DNA of 64,000 nucleotides from a virus (lineage: Duplodnaviria > Heunggongvirae > Uroviricota > Caudoviricetes): IMG/VR virus record IMGVR_UViG_2651869695_000003. The stretch is one strand, 5' to 3'. A model generated the notes under the pieces. That model was given only the letters and a program-made list of their open reading frames with translations. It was not told where the DNA came from and searched no databases. Both the position numbers and the translations under genes were made by a program. Position 1 is the first letter of the stretch. Every line of letters begins with the position of its first letter. This document shows, in pieces, positions 4,045 to 60,460 of this stretch.

Positions 4045-4803
4045 ATGAAAAGAAAAAAATTAGAAGGTCCCGGGTGTGAATCATATGAAGGGTTAGATGT
4101 TGAATATTATATTGATTCCGAAACGGGGGAATTTAAAGCGGTTTATACATTCAATAATGAAATTGTAGATCGCATAAAATTGAGTGGGCGTATTGCCGAT
4201 AGAGCATCTTCACTGTCCCTAATTCATAGGGACTTAAAAAGTGCTAAAGAGTGGTACCAAATAGCTAATGAACTGGCAGGGAGAAACGAATTAAGGACAG
4301 ATGGCAAGTTATACGGGAATATACTTGATCTAGATTTATCAAGTGAAATTAGAGCGTTATTTGTGGCAAGCCTAACGTTTTATGGTAAAGCTTTCTCTGA
4401 AGCTAAAGGGAGAAAGTTAAAGATGGAGCGTGATTGGCTTGATTCTGAATATTTTGGGTTGCATGACTGTATTATTAACTACAGGCATAATTTTGCAGCA
4501 CATAGCGGCAACCAAGACTATGAGTCAGCAGAAACTTCATTGTTACTAATAAGGAAAAATGGGAAAACATTTTATCAAGCAGTGACAGATAGAAAACAAC
4601 TGAGCATGATTGGTGTCGAGGACGAGCATGTTGATATGATTAATTTATTTGAACATGCGATACAGGTTGTTGAGAAAAAATATAATGAAACATTAGAGAG
4701 AATTAGAACCTATGTCATGCAAAAGAGTTATTCTTTTTGGTGTTTAGCTGCCACAGGGAAAGATCCCGTCAATTTAGATAAGTTAAATAAGAAGAAAAAA
4801 TAA
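4045..4803 (+). CDS. Hypothetical protein, AT-rich moron (candidate abortive-infection or defence gene)
   Basis: Low GC compared with flanking phage genes; followed by a candidate terminator (4840..4869); lies between Rz and HNH/terS; contains YRHNFAAH (R-x5-H). Confidence 0.5.
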   Translation: MKRKKLEGPGCESYEGLDVEYYIDSETGEFKAVYTFNNEIVDRIKLSGRIADRASSLSLIHRDLKSAKEWYQIANELAGRNELRTDGKLYGNILDLDLSSEIRALFVASLTFYGKAFSEAKGRKLKMERDWLDSEYFGLHDCIINYRHNFAAHSGNQDYESAETSLLLIRKNGKTFYQAVTDRKQLSMIGVEDEHVDMINLFEHAIQVVEKKYNETLERIRTYVMQKSYSFWCLAATGKDPVNLDKLNKKKK

Positions 4804-4839
4804 ACCTACTCTTCACATTAGTAACATTAGTAGATGCTA

Positions 4840-4869
4840 AGCCACTAGCAATCGATGGTGGCTTTTTTA
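4840..4869 (+). terminator. Rho-independent terminator after moron gene
   Basis: AGCCAC-loop-GTGGCT followed by TTTTTTATT. Confidence 0.5.
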
Positions 4870-4882
4870 TTGGAGCTTACCA

Positions 4883-5233
4883 ATGCCACCACGAACCCCA
4901 AAAGCCTGCCGTGTTCGCGGCTGCCGCTCTACAACCACAGACCCGTCAGGCTACTGCGAAAGCCACAAAAGCGAAGGCTGGAAGCAATACAAGCCAGGTC
5001 AGTCCCGTCATCAGCGCGGTTATGGTTCGAAGTGGGACGCTATCCGCGCGCGTGTGCTGAAGCGTGACAAAGGTTTATGTCAGTTATGTCTGCGTGCCGG
5101 TGTGGTGCGTGAGGCGAAAACCGTTGACCACATCATCCCTAAAGCGCATGGCGGCACTGATGCCGACTGTAATCTGCAGAGTCTGTGTTGGCCGTGTCAT
5201 AAGGCGAAGACGGCCCGTGAACGGTTAAAGTGA
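4883..5233 (+). CDS. HNH endonuclease (terminase-associated)
   Basis: Cys/His motifs CRVRGC...C and DHIIPKAHGG...CWPCH; directly upstream of cos-like region and terS as in HK97-like phages. Confidence 0.8.
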   Translation: MPPRTPKACRVRGCRSTTTDPSGYCESHKSEGWKQYKPGQSRHQRGYGSKWDAIRARVLKRDKGLCQLCLRAGVVREAKTVDHIIPKAHGGTDADCNLQSLCWPCHKAKTARERLK

Positions 5234-22209: not shown

Positions 22210-23193
22210 ATGCATCGTATAGACACGAAAACCGCGCAGAAGGATAAGTTCGGCGCGGGTAAGAACGGTTTTACCCGTGGTAACCCCCAGACCGGCACAC
22301 CTGCCACCGATCTTGATGATGACTACTTTGATATGTTGCAGGAAGAACTCTGCAGCGTGGTGGAGGCATCCGGTGCCAGCCTGGAGAAGGGGCGGCATGA
22401 CCAGCTGCTTACCGCGCTTCGTGCGCTGCTGTTAAGCCGCAAGAATCCGTTTAGCGATATCAAATCGGATGGCACGGTGAAAACGGCTCTCGAAAACCTT
22501 GGTTTGGGAGAAGCCAGATTCTCTGGTCGTTTGTTAAACACGAATATTTTTAAAAGCTCTGGAAAATATATCCCAACACTAGGGACAAAAAAGATAAGGG
22601 TCATTGCCTCTGGTGGCGGTGGCGGCGGCGGTGGGGTTCCTGAAACAACAGAAAATCAGCAGGCAACAGCCGGAGCTGGATTGAGCGGTGCATTTATTGA
22701 AGCATTTTTCGAGGTTGATAATGATTTCGAAGTCAACGTTATTATCGGTGCTGCAGGTAAAGGGGGGGGAGCCGGAAGAAATTCAGGTAGTGAAGGTGGC
22801 ACAACTTATTTCGGTTCCCTGATAACTGCACCGGGTGGTACAGGCGGTGGCGCGGGGGGAGCATCTGCAAACACATCATATATTCAGGGTATTTCATGGG
22901 GTGCCAGTCCGACATCGTCCGGTACTGTACTAAGAGCATTTCGCTGTAGTGCAAAAACACCAGGAGCAATGGTTATCTCTGTTAAAGCTGTTGCAGGTGG
23001 TACCGGGGGGGATACACCACTAGGTTCAGGCGGTATAGGTGGTGCAAGTTCTTCATCATTCAGCGGACGTGGTGGTGGTAAAGCTGAGGGCTTTGGTGCT
23101 GGCGGAGGCGGAGCCTGCGCACCTGCCGGAAGTGAGGCTCAATCGGGAGGTGACGGTGCCCCGGGAATAGTTATTGTTGAGGAGTATGCCTGA
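22210..23193 (+). CDS. Tail fibre protein, variant A (shared N-terminal 102 aa + Gly-rich C-terminal domain)
   Basis: N-terminus identical to 23844..24506 through ...LGLGEA, then unique Gly-rich C-terminus. Confidence 0.7.
22487..22512. other. gix/hix-like 26-bp recombination site (left)
   Basis: CTCTCGAAAACC-TT-GGTTTGGGAGAA: imperfect 12-bp dyad half-sites around a 2-bp core; ends 2 bp before the arms diverge. Confidence 0.45.
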
Positions 23194-23456: not shown

Positions 23457-23847
23457 GCCATTCAATATCTGGCGCACCGGAAGTATCGACCAGTTCCAGT
23501 GCGTCCAGGTAATCCAGCCACAAATTATATTGCGCCAGTTCCTCACCTTTCAGACGACCAATAGCGGCTTTACCAGGCCATTGCTTACTGTTCATGTATT
23601 CGTTGGCCTGTTCAATAAGTATACTTTTCATTCCCTCCGCTTCAGCTATTTCCTGTTCCTGTGTCTTCGCTGGATATTCAGTAAGTACAGGGTAGTTATC
23701 CGGATTATTGATAATAATTTTCCCCGTACTCTGACCATTCATAAGTTCATAATAAAGAGCATCTTCAATATCGAAAGCATCATCGGGAATATCGCTGTTA
23801 TTTTCAGAGAAAAATCCCTGAACAGATGGGGACCATTTCATTTTCAT
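23428..23847 (-). CDS. Tail fibre assembly protein B (Tfa family)
   Basis: 139 aa; C-terminal region typical of Tfa chaperones; convergent with and overlapping chaperone A by ~29 bp. Confidence 0.7.
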
Positions 23848-24506
23848 AATTTCCCAATTCCTAAAATGTGGACATCATCAGCCTTACGGGCATTCCAGGT
23901 GACAATTACATCGGTAGAGTGACGATTAACTGAGATTGCATATGCTTCGTTAGTCGAGCCAGAAACTTTTGTAGCAAACACAGCAAACAGGACACCAAAT
24001 GACTGGGGCCATTTATAGCCTGACAGCTGATAATTACCATTATTCAGTGTTACAGCTTTGGCTGCTGCACTTGATGGAATCGTCAGCCACTGAAGTATCA
24101 ACCCTCCTGGCAAAAGTTGTTTTCCGTAATAATCCCTCACCCCACTAAATGAAGCCATGTCCGGTATCTGATTTTCCCCTGTTCCCACATTTCGTTTTGC
24201 CGCTTCTCCCAAACCAAGGTTTTCGAGAGCCGTTTTCACCGTGCCATCCGATTTGATATCGCTAAACGGATTCTTGCGGCTTAACAGCAGCGCACGAAGC
24301 GCGGTAAGCAGCTGGTCATGCCGCCCCTTCTCCAGGCTGGCACCGGATGCCTCCACCACGCTGCAGAGTTCTTCCTGCAACATATCAAAGTAGTCATCAT
24401 CAAGATCGGTGGCAGGTGTGCCGGTCTGGGGGTTACCACGGGTAAAACCGTTCTTACCCGCGCCGAACTTATCCTTCTGCGCGGTTTTCGTGTCTATACG
24501 ATGCAT
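23844..24506 (-). CDS. Tail fibre protein, variant B (shared N-terminal 102 aa + alternative 118-aa C-terminal domain)
   Basis: Same N-terminus as fibre A, diverging exactly at the gix-like site. Confidence 0.7.
24204..24229. other. gix/hix-like 26-bp recombination site (right, inverted)
   Basis: TTCTCCCAAACC-AA-GGTTTTCGAGAG, reverse complement of the left site. Confidence 0.45.
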
Positions 24507-51344: not shown

Positions 51345-52019
51345 ATGAAAACAATCCATGACATCCGGCGGTCTAACGCCAGAAAACTGAGAGATGGTGT
51401 TGGCGGGAATTCTTCCTTTGCCACTATGATTGATCGCGAGCCAACCCAGACCAGCAGGTTTATGGGAGATGGTGCTACTAAAAATATCGGTGACAGCATG
51501 GCACGACACATCGAAAAATGTTTCGACCTGCCTGTCGGATGGCTCGATCAAGAACACCAGACAACGAACATCACAAAAAAACCTGATGTTTCAATCACTA
51601 ATAAACAAATCACATTAGTCCCTGTCATATCATGGGTACAGGCCGGAGCATGGAAAGAAGTTGGATATTCTGAGGTTGATTTGAGCACAGCAGAAACGTA
51701 TCCCTGCCCTGTACCCTGTGGGGAAATGACTTATATCTTGCGGGTGATAGGTGATTCAATGATTGATGAGTACCGCCCGGGAGACATGATTTTTGTCGAT
51801 CCTGAAGTACCTGCCTGCCACGGTGACGACGTTATTGCATTGATGCACGATACAGGTGAAACCACCTTCAAAAGGTTGATAGAAGATGGGACACAGCGTT
51901 ATCTCAAAGCGTTAAACCCAAACTGGCCTGAGCCTTACATTAAGATCAACGGTAATTGCTCTATAATTGGTACAGTGATTTTCTCAGGAAAACCAAGAAG
52001 ATACAAAATCAAAGCCTAA
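51345..52019 (+). CDS. cI: CI-like repressor (HTH + S24 LexA-like peptidase domain)
   Basis: 224 aa; C-terminal GDSM ... KRL Ser/Lys dyad context typical of autocleaving repressors. Confidence 0.8.
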   Translation: MKTIHDIRRSNARKLRDGVGGNSSFATMIDREPTQTSRFMGDGATKNIGDSMARHIEKCFDLPVGWLDQEHQTTNITKKPDVSITNKQITLVPVISWVQAGAWKEVGYSEVDLSTAETYPCPVPCGEMTYILRVIGDSMIDEYRPGDMIFVDPEVPACHGDDVIALMHDTGETTFKRLIEDGTQRYLKALNPNWPEPYIKINGNCSIIGTVIFSGKPRRYKIKA

Positions 52020-54468: not shown

Positions 54469-54993
54469 ATGTCATTTATTAGAACTTTTTCCGGGAAGCA
54501 TTTTTATTATGAAAGGATAAATAAAGACGACATCGATATTAACGATATCGCGGTTTCCCTTTCAAATATCTGTCGCTTTGCCGGTCATCTTTCGCACTTC
54601 TACAGCGTCGCCCAACATGCGGTTCTTTGCAGCCAGCTGGTGCCGCAGGAATTTGCTTTTGAAGCGTTAATGCATGATGCAACAGAAGCGTATTGCCAGG
54701 ACATTCCCGCACCACTGAAACGCCTTCTTCCTGACTATAAACGAATGGAAGAAAAAATAGACGCCGTAATCCGTGAGAAATACGGGTTACCCCCGGTTAT
54801 GAGTACGCCCGTGAAATATGCCGATCTCATCATGCTGGCAACCGAACGCCGCGATCTCGGGCTTGATGATGGCTCTTTCTGGCCCGTACTGGAAGGTATC
54901 CCGGCAACAGAGATGTTCAAAGTTATTCCACTGTCGCCAGGCCATACCTATGGGATGTTTATGGAACGCTTTAAAGAGTTAACTGAGTCGTAA
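54469..54993 (+). CDS. HD-domain 5'-deoxynucleotidase (YfdR-like)
   Basis: His/Asp motifs (HAVLCSQ, MHDATEAY) typical of HD hydrolases. Confidence 0.55.
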   Translation: MSFIRTFSGKHFYYERINKDDIDINDIAVSLSNICRFAGHLSHFYSVAQHAVLCSQLVPQEFAFEALMHDATEAYCQDIPAPLKRLLPDYKRMEEKIDAVIREKYGLPPVMSTPVKYADLIMLATERRDLGLDDGSFWPVLEGIPATEMFKVIPLSPGHTYGMFMERFKELTES

Positions 54994-55101
54994 AAATCAG
55001 CACGTACGAATTCAAACTCTGCCATAAAAGAACATATAAGTAATTTATTAACATATAGATATAGGTTATATTACAAATTGAAAAATTATTGGAGAGCAAC
55101 A

Positions 55102-55968
55102 ATGAATCAAAATCCATTCTCATTCTATGACTTTCTTGGATATTTAATACCAGGTGGTTTTTTTATCCTATTAATGTATTTCTGTGGTTTGACATTCGAT
55201 CTAGATATTGTTATTGACTTAAGTGAATTGCTCAGAGGTCAAAGTCAAATCTTTGGCATTTTGAACTACGCTTCAATAGTTATTATATCTTATATAGCTG
55301 GACATTTTATTTCTATCACGTCAGCATTTTTTATCGAAAAATACATGAATAAAGAATTAGGATATCCTTCCAAATATCTATTTAAAAAATTGATAGATAC
55401 CTCAGAAAGCATTTGTAGCCCATCATGCGATGAGAGAAGCGCTGATAAAAAAACAAAAATAAAGAATCGCATAATCAAATGCGTATTATGTCCAATAATA
55501 CTATGGGATTTTATAACACAAAAACTATGTTATTCTCAATCTCTACCATTTCATTTAGCTAATACAACATGGTTAATGATCAAAGAAGGTTATGAGAAAA
55601 AGTTCATAACAAATCGCCAATTATTACAAGATAAAAACGGACTTGATGATGATCTCTTCAGATTGGCATATCATTATGTTTATGAGTTTTCAAAACAACA
55701 TCAAACAAAAATTCAAAACTATGTTGCATTATATGGTTTTTGCAGAAACATATGTTTAATCTTTATAATTTCATTTTGGGTATCAGTTCCAACCTTTATT
55801 TATCGATTATGTACTCATAGTGATTATCTTTATAGTTTACTTTCAATAATGCTTAGCTTTTTCTTCGTCTATGTCTTCTATGTTGGTTTTGTTAAATTTT
55901 ATAGAAGATATACTTTAGAAGTATTAATGGCATTTGCTGTACTTCAAAGTAACGACACTATTCGTTAA
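55102..55968 (+). CDS. AT-rich integral membrane protein (moron, unknown function)
   Basis: Very low GC; hydrophobic helices at both termini; between yfdR-like gene and xis. Confidence 0.45.
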   Translation: MNQNPFSFYDFLGYLIPGGFFILLMYFCGLTFDLDIVIDLSELLRGQSQIFGILNYASIVIISYIAGHFISITSAFFIEKYMNKELGYPSKYLFKKLIDTSESICSPSCDERSADKKTKIKNRIIKCVLCPIILWDFITQKLCYSQSLPFHLANTTWLMIKEGYEKKFITNRQLLQDKNGLDDDLFRLAYHYVYEFSKQHQTKIQNYVALYGFCRNICLIFIISFWVSVPTFIYRLCTHSDYLYSLLSIMLSFFFVYVFYVGFVKFYRRYTLEVLMAFAVLQSNDTIR

Positions 55969-56009
55969 TAATGTTGCTCCCGTGTGCAGACGGGATAATG
56001 GAGAAACGT

Positions 56010-56216
56010 ATGCTGAACCTCGATTGTGTTCCTATCTCAACTTATTGCAAAGAAACTGGCGAAACTCCTGAAGCAATAAACAAACGTGTACAGCGCGGTG
56101 TTTGGCGTGAAGGTGTTCAGGTTTTAAAGGTTGAAGGCGTTAAGGAGAGGTGGATTGATCTTAGTGAGGTTGCAAAATGGGCCAGACAAAACTGCTCAAA
56201 CTACCGCGCGGCGTAA
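56010..56216 (+). CDS. xis: Excisionase-like protein
   Basis: Small basic protein overlapping int start. Confidence 0.5.
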   Translation: MLNLDCVPISTYCKETGETPEAINKRVQRGVWREGVQVLKVEGVKERWIDLSEVAKWARQNCSNYRAA

Positions 56217-57352
56217 CAATCAGGAAACACCGCCAGGGAGAAACGATCAATATAACTTTCACCTACAAAGGAGTTAGATGTCGTGAGCCACTTTCCAATC
56301 TGGAAGTAACACCAAAGAACATTAAATACGCCGAGCGTACACTCGGCGAAATCCATAATAAGATCGAAAGGGGAACATTCATTTATGCAGAATATTTTCC
56401 CCGTTCTGCTCGTTTGAAAATTTTTGGTAATGCTGCCACTGGCAAAACGGTAAAAATGTACCTGGACGAATATCTTGAAATCTGCGAAACGAGGAAACTA
56501 TCACCATCCACGATTGGTGGTTATAAAAAATGCCGGAGTGCGTTAGCCTCGCTTCACATTTGCCCTGCAAGTGAATTAACACCAGCAACCCTGAAAGCGT
56601 GGATTCAAAGCCAAAAAACGACCTTAAAAACCATTCGCAACCAGTTATCTTTCCTGCGGTCAGCACTTGATGAAGCCGTAACCGATGGGGTACTTCAAAT
56701 TAATCCCGTATCGTTAGTAACTGCTTCGCGCTACCAAAGTGATAAGTCAGAAGCAGAAAGCAGCTACGTGGTTGATCCGCTATCACCAGCAGAAGTTGAT
56801 GCATTACTAGCAGCAGCCGGAAACAAACAATGGGAGAATCTGTTCCGGTTCGCTATACATACAGGTCTGCGTAGTTCTGAATTATGTGCCCTTCGATGGC
56901 GTGATATTGACTTTGTAGGGATGACTGCCCACGTCCAGAGCGCCAGTGTTGTTGGTGTAATCAAAGGTACCAAAACAAAAGCAGGTACTCGAAAAGTTGA
57001 ACTGACAGATGAAGCAATGTCTGCACTAATAAATCAGAAACCGTTCACTTTCATGAAGGACGCGACTGTCTTTGAAGATCCAAAAACCAATAAACCTTGG
57101 GCCAGCGCAGACGCCATAAGAAAGAAGGCATGGGTGCCAACTTTACGTAAAGCCGGAGTCCGTTACCGTAATCCTTATCAAACTAGACATACATTTGCTA
57201 CAAAACACATTAGTCAAGGTGTTAATTTGTTTTGGTTAGCCGCTCAAATGGGGCATAAAGGACCAGAAATGCTATTTAGGCATTACGGCCGTTATCTTAA
57301 AGATTATGATAACAATAGCACACACAATCATTTGATAAATTGTACTAATTAA
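56177..57352 (+). CDS. int: Tyrosine integrase (phage integrase family)
   Basis: 391 aa; C-terminal catalytic region (RHTFAT, HYGRYL); adjacent to att site. Confidence 0.85.
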   Translation: MGQTKLLKLPRGVTIRKHRQGETINITFTYKGVRCREPLSNLEVTPKNIKYAERTLGEIHNKIERGTFIYAEYFPRSARLKIFGNAATGKTVKMYLDEYLEICETRKLSPSTIGGYKKCRSALASLHICPASELTPATLKAWIQSQKTTLKTIRNQLSFLRSALDEAVTDGVLQINPVSLVTASRYQSDKSEAESSYVVDPLSPAEVDALLAAAGNKQWENLFRFAIHTGLRSSELCALRWRDIDFVGMTAHVQSASVVGVIKGTKTKAGTRKVELTDEAMSALINQKPFTFMKDATVFEDPKTNKPWASADAIRKKAWVPTLRKAGVRYRNPYQTRHTFATKHISQGVNLFWLAAQMGHKGPEMLFRHYGRYLKDYDNNSTHNHLINCTN

Positions 57353-57391
57353 ATGATAATCTCTACTTCTGATTGGAAGTAGAGATTTCAC

Positions 57392-58210
57392 ATGAATAAC
57401 ACAGATTTAATAAAAATGTTAGGTTACTCAATTACCACTACCGACTTCATAGCCATAATAAGTGTCATAATTGCATTTTTTGCAATGTACCAAACATGGC
57501 AGCAAAGAATAATTTCAAACAAACCTCAAATCTTACCTAAGAATATAAAATTCACATGGATGCACAGAGATAACTTGAAATTATTTAAGAACATAGAAAT
57601 ATCACCAACCACTTTGAATATAGAGCTTCTCAACATAGGTCTTGGCCCAGCTATAAAAATAAACCACTACTGGTCTGAAGAGTATGAGAAATATATTAAG
57701 ATAAACAAATTCAAAATAGATAATAACAACACACAAAAATCACATGAGATATTTTTGCAAAATGAAGAGTTTTTTACAATCAAAGACAACAATAACTTCT
57801 TGAATGTTGATATTTTTGGTAGAGGTCCGCAAAAACATAATAGCTTTCAAAAAAAAGGAACTTTGATAGAATTTATAACTCCGAATATTAAAGACAAAGA
57901 GAAAACAACCATACCATTTCCCCCATTGGTGCCGGAATTAATTGGTAATTATCTTGTAACCACCTCCATCTCATCGTTTATAGGGCCGGACCTTATCCTT
58001 GAATATAGAGATGTAAACAATAAGAAAAGAAAGAAAATTTTCACAACAGAATTTAAGAGCGTATCTTTTTACGGAAATGGCTTAGATCTAATTTTAGACA
58101 TAGATATTCTTTTCACATCCAAACAGTGTTGGACACAGGTTGTCCTAGAAAGGATACGCAAAAGCTACGCAGATTTTATGGATGAGCATGATTTTAATAA
58201 AAACAGATAG
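57392..58210 (+). CDS. AT-rich hypothetical protein with N-terminal TM helix (moron between int and attR)
   Basis: 272 aa, Asn/Lys/Ile-rich, very low GC. Confidence 0.45.
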   Translation: MNNTDLIKMLGYSITTTDFIAIISVIIAFFAMYQTWQQRIISNKPQILPKNIKFTWMHRDNLKLFKNIEISPTTLNIELLNIGLGPAIKINHYWSEEYEKYIKINKFKIDNNNTQKSHEIFLQNEEFFTIKDNNNFLNVDIFGRGPQKHNSFQKKGTLIEFITPNIKDKEKTTIPFPPLVPELIGNYLVTTSISSFIGPDLILEYRDVNNKKRKKIFTTEFKSVSFYGNGLDLILDIDILFTSKQCWTQVVLERIRKSYADFMDEHDFNKNR

Positions 58211-58302: not shown

Positions 58303-58335
58303 CCCGCACGGCGCAAGCCCTGCGGGCTTTTTTGT
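58303..58335 (+). terminator. Rho-independent terminator downstream of ssrA 3' fragment
   Basis: GCCCGCA-loop-TGCGGGC followed by TTTTTTG. Confidence 0.6.

Positions 58336-58515: not shown

Positions 58516-60460
<1,945 letters not shown>

Follow-up and report, generated by a model that had tools for sequence, protein, structure and literature searches.

What does a temperate phage carry in a strongly AT-rich gene lodged between its early genes and its integration module? The question is raised by a 64,000-nucleotide stretch of IMG/VR virus record IMGVR_UViG_2651869695_000003 (Caudoviricetes), referred to below as the window. Within it, a lambdoid Escherichia coli prophage displays, all on one strand, a cI-like repressor gene, yfdP, yfdQ, yfdR, a gene for a predicted membrane protein of 288 amino acids (aa), xis and int. 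An initial annotation of the sequence had singled out this membrane-protein gene (hereafter the membrane gene; Table 1) and, judging by its location, thought of lysogenic conversion, be it through O-antigen modification or through exclusion. We find the membrane gene to be a swappable accessory cassette, or moron, of its prophage, and consider it highly probable from profile comparisons that the product belongs to the superfamily of Csx27, a membrane protein otherwise associated with CRISPR-Cas systems of type VI-B.

The membrane gene is a swappable cassette in the yfdR-xis slot

Domain, PHROG and RefSeq assignments bore out the position given in the initial annotation, between a yfdR-like gene and xis. 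The latter matched the excisionase family phrog_2917 (E = 8e-45), the int product contained the Arm-DNA-bind_2 and Phage_integrase domains, and the RefSeq annotation agreed with both. Thousands of E. coli genomes carry a yfdR of 93–98% identity, whereas far fewer possess the membrane gene. Of 5,426 complete E. coli genomes, 181 (~3%) contained at least 80% of a query spanning it (54900–56300). Sibling prophages with near-identical yfdR and xis-int sequences harbor two small genes (363 and 216 bp) in the slot instead, which argues that the membrane gene is dispensable for the phage cycle. The siblings devoid of the membrane gene also lack an equivalent of the spacer that precedes it in the window, with yfdR overlapping the next small gene there.

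Alleles of the membrane gene and their flanks differed in their degree of conservation. An allele of 78% identity was accompanied by yfdQ and yfdR genes that are 96–98% identical, and another of 85% identity by a yfdR of 68% and an xis of 96%, showing that the alleles and their surroundings recombine independently of one another. Proximity to an integrase gene is a recurrent theme: of the 61 homologue-bearing phage or prophage loci, 47 had an integrase gene that started 211–1283 bp downstream, at least three integrase types being represented, and most of the remaining loci ended within ~2 kb. Klebsiella phage P7641 showed the same gene order around its copy.

With respect to the gene itself, the sequence reads as an intact open reading frame (ORF) from an ATG to a TAA codon, at the coordinates initially annotated. 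The ATG is preceded at a distance of 7 nt by a good Shine-Dalgarno sequence (GGAG, 55091–55094), and MNQNPFS is the N-terminus of nearly every homologue in the alignment. A longer version initiating at TTG 55078 is unlikely, since the GGAG is placed for the ATG and the homologues share this N-terminus. The very low GC content noted from the outset was confirmed: 28.6% across the gene and 21.9% at third codon positions, as compared to 46.2% in yfdR, 45.9% in xis, 43.2% in int and 51.0% in the whole window. This difference from its flanks lends the gene a foreign appearance, suggestive of horizontal acquisition. An index of public assemblies lists the identical protein in 11,172 blocks, and in RefSeq and complete E. 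coli genomes it is invariably annotated as ‘hypothetical protein’. Measured against alleles that are 12–19% diverged at the nucleotide level, the ratio of nonsynonymous to synonymous substitution rates (dN/dS) amounted to 0.16–0.22. The membrane gene is under purifying selection; it is real and constrained, and not a chance ORF.

Profile comparisons point to a distant branch of the Csx27 superfamily

Searches of Pfam returned no family for the membrane protein at E ≤ 1, and the sole PHROG match was to phrog_12528, a family of unknown function that aligned from end to end (E = 8e-174). When 1.84 billion representative sequences were searched by profile, 973 clusters (50% identity) were reached at E ≤ 1e-3, 219 of them at E ≤ 1e-30. 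Homologues of the same length, down to ~30% identity, were distributed across many bacterial phyla and retained sharply conserved motifs.

The Csx27 model of PADLOC aligned with residues 6–268 of the window protein (E = 1.4e-5), and tm_4, a second PADLOC model associated with type VI-B systems, matched at E = 1.3e-3. The NCBIfam model for Csx27 (NF040557) covered residues 5–43 only (E = 0.02; 14.9 bits). When applied to 131 diverse family members, the PADLOC model matched 95 (best E = 2.2e-10) and the NCBIfam model 23 (best E = 2e-6), and the homologues from Klebsiella and P2-like phages matched Csx27 over nearly their full length. Shuffling residues within each transmembrane (TM) or loop segment of the window protein abolished the signal: at a threshold of E ≤ 1, not one of the 5,027 PADLOC models was matched by any of ten shuffles, so that the similarity to Csx27, though weak, is specific and not explained by composition. 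Acyltransferases and exclusion proteins had initially been put forward as candidate families. Our profile searches recovered neither an acyltransferase nor a known exclusion family, nor any clear homology to a known non-defence function; the sole named similarity, and the only one at the family level, is to the defence-associated Csx27.

We conclude that the family likely represents a distant branch of the Csx27 superfamily. The window protein is not Csx27 proper, because its NF040557 score falls far below the curated equivalog cut-off of 65 bits, its middle region is larger, and the window contains no cas13b gene, the largest ORF (611 aa) being too small to encode Cas13b.

Type VI-B1 CRISPR-Cas13b loci encode Csx27 as an accessory 4-TM membrane protein, and Smargon et al. 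reported no copy of it beyond type VI-B loci. According to papers that cite it, the survey by Makarova, Gao, Zhang and Koonin (2019, FEMS Microbiol Lett 366:fnz088) places a wide 4-TM family around Csx27 and predicts this family to form membrane channels for single-stranded DNA. The competence, ubiquitin-like and WYL partners reported for the Csx27 family were not among the most frequent neighbour families at the 80 distant loci described below. A subfamily linked to DNA modification reportedly features in the same survey. The window gene has no operon partner from competence, ubiquitin-like, WYL-helix-turn-helix or DNA-modification systems, and at the distant loci, genes for restriction and DNA modification occur as scattered neighbours only.

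Conserved residues cluster at the predicted cytoplasmic face

The hydrophobic helices initially placed at both termini were recovered by hydropathy and by structure prediction alike. Kyte-Doolittle analysis delineated four hydrophobic stretches, two per terminus (approximate boundaries in Table 1). An AlphaFold model based on a deep alignment was all-helical and of high confidence (predicted local distance difference test (pLDDT), 89.5; predicted template modelling score, 0.88), with helices at aa 8–27, 45–86, 198–237 and 243–287, of which those containing TM2, TM3 and TM4 run on as long helices into the predicted cytoplasm. The predicted topology is that of a polytopic membrane protein, with four TM helices and both ends inside.

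This orientation derives from the distribution of charge. In the 131 family members, TM2 and TM3 are separated by a median of 125 aa, and this segment contains on average 18.4 lysine plus arginine residues as opposed to 12.7 aspartate plus glutamate residues. The C-terminal tail averages 4.0 basic residues, and the two short loops only 1.2 and 0.4. The loops assigned to the periplasm have median lengths of 15 and 5 aa. By the positive-inside rule, these family means place the N- and C-termini as well as the large middle region in the cytoplasm, leaving almost nothing in the periplasm. The predicted protein would hence consist of two TM helices, a basic cytoplasmic region of ~125 aa and two further TM helices, and would insert into the inner membrane in vivo.

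Four motifs stand out. NPFSxYDFLGYxxPG (aa 4–18), present family-wide, begins ahead of TM1 and extends into its start. GHxxSxxSxxxxE (aa 67–79) occupies the cytoplasmic end of TM2 and is followed by GYPS. In the central region, DLFRxAYHY...H..K.QN (in a longer rendering, DxFRxxYHY...H..K.QNYVALYGFxR) leads into TM3, and GFxKFYRRxxLExxMA (aa 262–277) comes after TM4. All conserved polar residues that we located map to the predicted cytoplasmic side. With all four motifs at or near this face, the constrained part of the protein would be a juxtamembrane site that faces the cytoplasm and abounds in His, Asp, Glu, Lys and Arg. This points to gating or to a bound partner or ligand on the inner side of the membrane, and away from periplasmic chemistry. 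The central region further comprises a pair of hydrophobic helices (aa 116–139) with conserved residues P131 and D136, and in the model this pair could dip back into the inner leaflet.

Fold searches with a medium- and with a high-confidence model retrieved generic helical bundles only, so that no solved structure emerged as a relative; at the sequence level, profile matches in the PDB were due to chance (growth hormone, E = 0.015 or worse). The stator chains MotA, PomA and ExbB, whose layout loosely resembles that of the window protein, appeared in the Foldseek list and were rejected as relatives at TM-scores of only ~0.2. A CPBP/Abi-type intramembrane protease was likewise discarded, as the conserved His, Asp and Glu residues did not fit by eye and Pfam lent no support.

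Table 1. Positions of the membrane gene, its predicted regions and the borders of the yfdR-xis slot in the window.
Feature	Position	Strand	Description
yfdR	54469–54993	+	HD-domain 5'-deoxynucleotidase; conserved phage early gene; left edge of slot
AT-rich spacer	54994–55101	+	108 bp from yfdR stop to membrane-gene start; holds GGAG
Membrane-protein coding sequence	55102–55968	+	288 aa, stop codon included in coordinates; RefSeq WP_001075212.1 ‘hypothetical protein’
N-terminal membrane hairpin (predicted)	55135–55335	+	TM1 aa 12–32, acidic periplasmic loop aa 33–49, TM2 aa 50–78; from hydropathy, conservation, charge and model
Central basic region (predicted)	55336–55719	+	aa 79–206; predicted cytoplasmic, all-helical; from charge, conservation and model helices
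C-terminal membrane hairpin (predicted)	55720–55965	+	TM3 aa 207–235, loop of ~7 aa, TM4 aa 243–265, then conserved cytoplasmic helix
Excisionase and tyrosine integrase genes	56010–57352	+	right edge of slot; xis 56010–56216 overlaps int 56177–57352

Homologues occupy a P2 hotspot and variable chromosomal regions

P2-like phages encode a homologue with 44% identity (P0121) between gpQ, the gene for the portal, and gpA, a replication gene. Rousset et al. (2022, Cell Host Microbe 30:740, PMC9122126) delimit this interval as the old/tin hotspot of anti-phage genes. Except for one residue, the P0121 sequence equals protein 2 of system 3 in Table S5B of that study, a cassette designated DUF4760 + 4TM that ranks third with 1,102 occurrences. 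Using tblastn, we found the DUF4760 gene solely at the P2-like locus; the best match in the window had an E-value of 0.24, and the other 60 phage loci gave none. Given that the window contains no DUF4760 gene, its membrane gene represents a solitary form. In the P2-like genome concerned, Escherichia phage vB_EcoM-705R2 (ON470623.1), the DUF4760 gene lies at 4464–4958 on the plus strand (100% identity by tblastn). It is unannotated in the record, where two small minus-strand ORFs are annotated over this interval instead. A literature search on WP_001075212.1, Csx27-like proteins and DUF4760 found nothing relevant.

To survey distant relatives, we sampled 80 loci from as many species, covering many phyla, clustered the neighbouring genes and annotated the first and second neighbours with Pfam and PADLOC. 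Among the neighbours were integrases, type I restriction-modification subunits and MADS components, along with an HsdM methylase, an MmeI-like enzyme, a SIR2-STAND protein, Abi_2, a DUF1156 methylase and an SNF2 helicase. A patatin and an ABC-3C domain were also encountered; the housekeeping genes nrdAB adjoin a distant homologue as well. A minority of the homologues, from Bacteroidales and Acholeplasmataceae, reside among glycosyltransferase, epimerase and WecG genes. The distant loci have no small upstream ORF in common. The resulting picture is that of a mobile singleton in variable regions, with some defence flavour and no strong uniform signal.

At two of these loci, the gene for the 4-TM protein closes an operon-like string. 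In one (L143, 413–8828), it comes after genes for a DUF1156 methylase, an SNF2 helicase and a protein of 136 aa, with Abi_2 upstream. In the other (L081, 293–8834), the genes ahead of it encode an MmeI-like restriction-modification enzyme, a SIR2-STAND NTPase and a coiled-coil protein of 151 aa. The 136-aa and 151-aa proteins have no detectable relation to each other.

A tentative role in phage-phage conflict and its rivals

Lambda RexB (4 TM helices), P22 SieA, T4 Imm and HK97 gp15 are membrane proteins of prophage exclusion and abortive infection that reside in the inner membrane and are accessory and dispensable. RexB, SieA and Imm provide the precedent for membrane proteins that block entry or that depolarise or collapse the membrane. 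Coupled with this precedent, the presence of the family at two kinds of phage cargo site and its relation to Csx27 render phage-phage conflict the best-supported reading. We tentatively propose a role in exclusion or abortive infection at the inner membrane, a proposal to which we assign slightly less than an even chance. The prophage cassette would endow the lysogen with an inner-membrane protein of the Csx27 superfamily, and this protein would either hinder the genome entry of a superinfecting phage or act as an effector that aborts the infection, with protection of the lysogen and its prophage. The scheme presumes expression in the lysogen, a target, and either an entry block or the killing of the infected cell. 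A more general proposition, for which we have distinctly lower expectations, holds that solitary Csx27-like proteins are self-sufficient inner-membrane immunity factors, housed in integrase-proximal slots and P2 hotspots and acting on incoming phage DNA or on membrane integrity via the conserved cytoplasm-facing bundle.

Several observations weigh against a role in phage-phage conflict. At the 80 distant loci, no partner gene is conserved (the largest neighbour cluster occurs in 9 of them), recognisable defence genes account for only a few percent of direct neighbours, and the enrichment of chromosomal homologues in defence islands is modest at best. As to Csx27, the window protein falls far short of the equivalog cut-off, Csx27 was reported to repress rather than enhance Cas13b interference, and Csx27-RFP (red fluorescent protein) fusions displayed no membrane localisation in E. 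coli (Smargon et al.). In the tables of Rousset et al. (2022), DUF4760 figures in the catalogue only and is absent among the systems put to the test, and we found no published experiment on the window protein or its P2 homologue. As for transcription, a candidate weak sigma-70 promoter was discerned by eye in the spacer (TTATTA, 16 nt, TATATT); a consensus promoter scan of the same 108 bp found nothing above threshold, so that a promoter of its own is putative, and there is no terminator-like site in the 41-bp gap between the membrane gene and xis. Early lytic transcription is therefore possible. What is more, the gene shares strand and order with yfdP-yfdQ-yfdR-xis-int downstream of the cI-like repressor gene, which is the layout of the lambda PL operon, and the yfdR-xis slot corresponds to the ea/orf region of non-essential early genes in lambda. 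These transcriptional features fit the main rival, namely an early lytic membrane protein that serves the phage itself by changing the envelope, blocking division or closing the door behind the infecting genome. We deem this rival rather unlikely. The genes known from the P2 old/tin hotspot, where a homologue sits, act in the lysogen; many of the relatives reside in chromosomes and outside prophages; and the gene is missing from the slot of sibling prophages, hence dispensable for the phage cycle.

Still less probable is lysogenic conversion through an effect on surface polysaccharide, whether O-antigen or capsule. Positions next to int are typical of gtr and oac conversion genes, and the homologues from Bacteroidales and Acholeplasmataceae that lie among polysaccharide genes would fit; polysaccharide loci, however, are likely to be variable low-GC regions that gather unrelated insertions. 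Nothing in Pfam related the protein to acyltransferase, glycosyltransferase, flippase or polymerase families, and the window has no gtrA- or gtrB-like partner genes. O-antigen-modifying systems (Oac/Acyl_transf_3, GtrABC) are characterised by at least nine TM helices and by periplasmic loops, as opposed to the four helices, tiny loops and cytoplasm-facing polar residues predicted here. O-antigen modification, or acyltransferase activity, as envisaged in the initial annotation is thus poorly supported. What stands of its lysogenic-conversion spot is the location, given the variable slot in siblings, the homologues beside different integrases and the copy in the P2 hotspot. We place at the same low level an anti-defence or immune-modulating factor, whereby a phage relative of Csx27 would damp a host immune effector. 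Csx27 did reduce Cas13b interference, in the case of a heterologous Cas13b by ~10^5-fold (Smargon et al.), and the membrane gene is borne by temperate phages; yet the window has no cas13b, no partner effector is conserved beside family members, and the P2 hotspot is known for defence cargo. Lastly, the very low GC content, the ‘hypothetical’ annotation and the want of a Pfam family might suggest AT-rich junk DNA in which the ORF is spurious or decaying. This is refuted by the conservation data: the dN/dS values, the homologues with sharp motifs down to ~30% identity and, in addition, the pLDDT of the model leave it virtually no probability.

The link to the Csx27 family and the P2 cassette are already in the literature, whereas the lambdoid E. 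coli form is unannotated. The window protein is very common, its identical sequence occurring in more than 11,000 index blocks, and a homologue belongs to the third most frequent P2-hotspot cassette; it is nevertheless still ‘hypothetical’ and has neither a Pfam family nor, by its confident model, a relative of solved structure. Through it, a large family that spans phyla becomes easy to approach in E. coli; Csx27, with its unexplained effect on Cas13b, is the only member studied. If it does function in exclusion or abortive infection, the protein would constitute a new single-gene membrane defence and aid the interpretation of integrase-proximal prophage cargo. Should the solitary Csx27-like proteins prove to be self-sufficient immunity factors, elucidating the abundant E. 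coli form would also explain the role of Csx27 in type VI-B CRISPR systems.

Other features of the window

Just downstream of int lies a second AT-rich accessory gene (57392–58210, plus strand; 31% GC). Its 272-aa product has one N-terminal TM helix followed by a soluble domain and belongs to phrog_7259, a family of unknown function. A promoter-like site (57332–57360) and a terminator-like hairpin (58315–58329) accompany the gene. In other prophages, the slot behind the integrase gene is taken by relatives of 25–30% identity, and in yet other siblings this cargo is a DUF4325/STAS-like three-gene set or a SecB-like set. We considered the 272-aa protein as a DUF4760 relative and found no relation. 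Immediately past this cargo gene, two adjacent minus-strand ORFs (58582–59316 and 59317–60381) are read, from the sequence of the first ORF alone, as a likely IS21-type pair encoding an IstB-like ATPase and an IstA-like transposase, in which case the prophage end would have been struck by an insertion sequence.

Between the cI-like repressor gene (51345–52019) and yfdP, the segment 52100–53100 differs from that of sibling prophages, which have a gene for a 170-aa protein on the minus strand. In the window, it contains short overlapping ORFs only and a GC-rich patch (54–56%), and may be another variable slot or a remnant.

The window also contains a perfect inverted repeat, with arms at 1–22514 and 24202–46715 (22,514 nt, 100% identity) separated by 1,687 nt. 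The left arm reaches the window edge, and the repeat may be longer. It mirrors late genes (structural and tail) around ORFs at 22210–23193 (plus strand) and 23844–24506 (minus strand), which are placed like tail-fibre genes. Either fold-back during assembly has created the repeat as an artefact, or it is a genuine inverted duplication with this segment at its centre.

Comparison with known systems

The membrane-bound nuclease SNIPE serves as a precedent only, being unrelated to the window protein in sequence and architecture. Pfam, PHROG, PADLOC and fold searches likewise detected no sequence or fold similarity of the window protein to SieB, SieA, RexB, Imm or HK97 gp15, and the window gene, unlike rexB, is devoid of a RexA-like partner. 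RexAB-like 4-TM cassettes do appear in the tables of Rousset et al. (2022). PDC-M48A (a ‘phage defence candidate’ in PADLOC), from another P2-hotspot cassette, is similarly a small 4-TM protein (162 aa). It bears a weak likeness to the first membrane hairpin (hhalign probability 38%), and six of the 131 family members match its model at E ~1e-3. PDC-M48A is, however, much shorter, its marginal similarity is confined to TM1-TM2, and neither the central region nor the C-terminal motifs have a counterpart in it.

In the case of P2 system 3, the resemblance is full-length: at 44% identity, P0121 shares the motifs and the Csx27 match of the window protein, and it is phage-borne in a variable accessory locus. 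The P2 version differs in that a DUF4760 gene (1 TM helix) lies 43 bp upstream of the 4-TM gene, and in its location within the gpA-gpQ hotspot as opposed to the yfdR-xis slot of a lambdoid prophage.

With regard to Csx27, the window protein is ~70–80 aa longer than the models, owing to its larger region between TM2 and TM3. Its gene stands alone in a prophage, next to yfdR, xis and int and outside any CRISPR context, although no dedicated scan for CRISPR arrays was part of this comparison. On the side of likeness, the window protein, too, has four predicted TM helices, and the match begins at the shared N-terminal motif and extends, in the PADLOC alignment, to the last TM helix. Moreover, two independent Csx27 models are the top matches, or among the only ones, for the window protein and for most members of its family.

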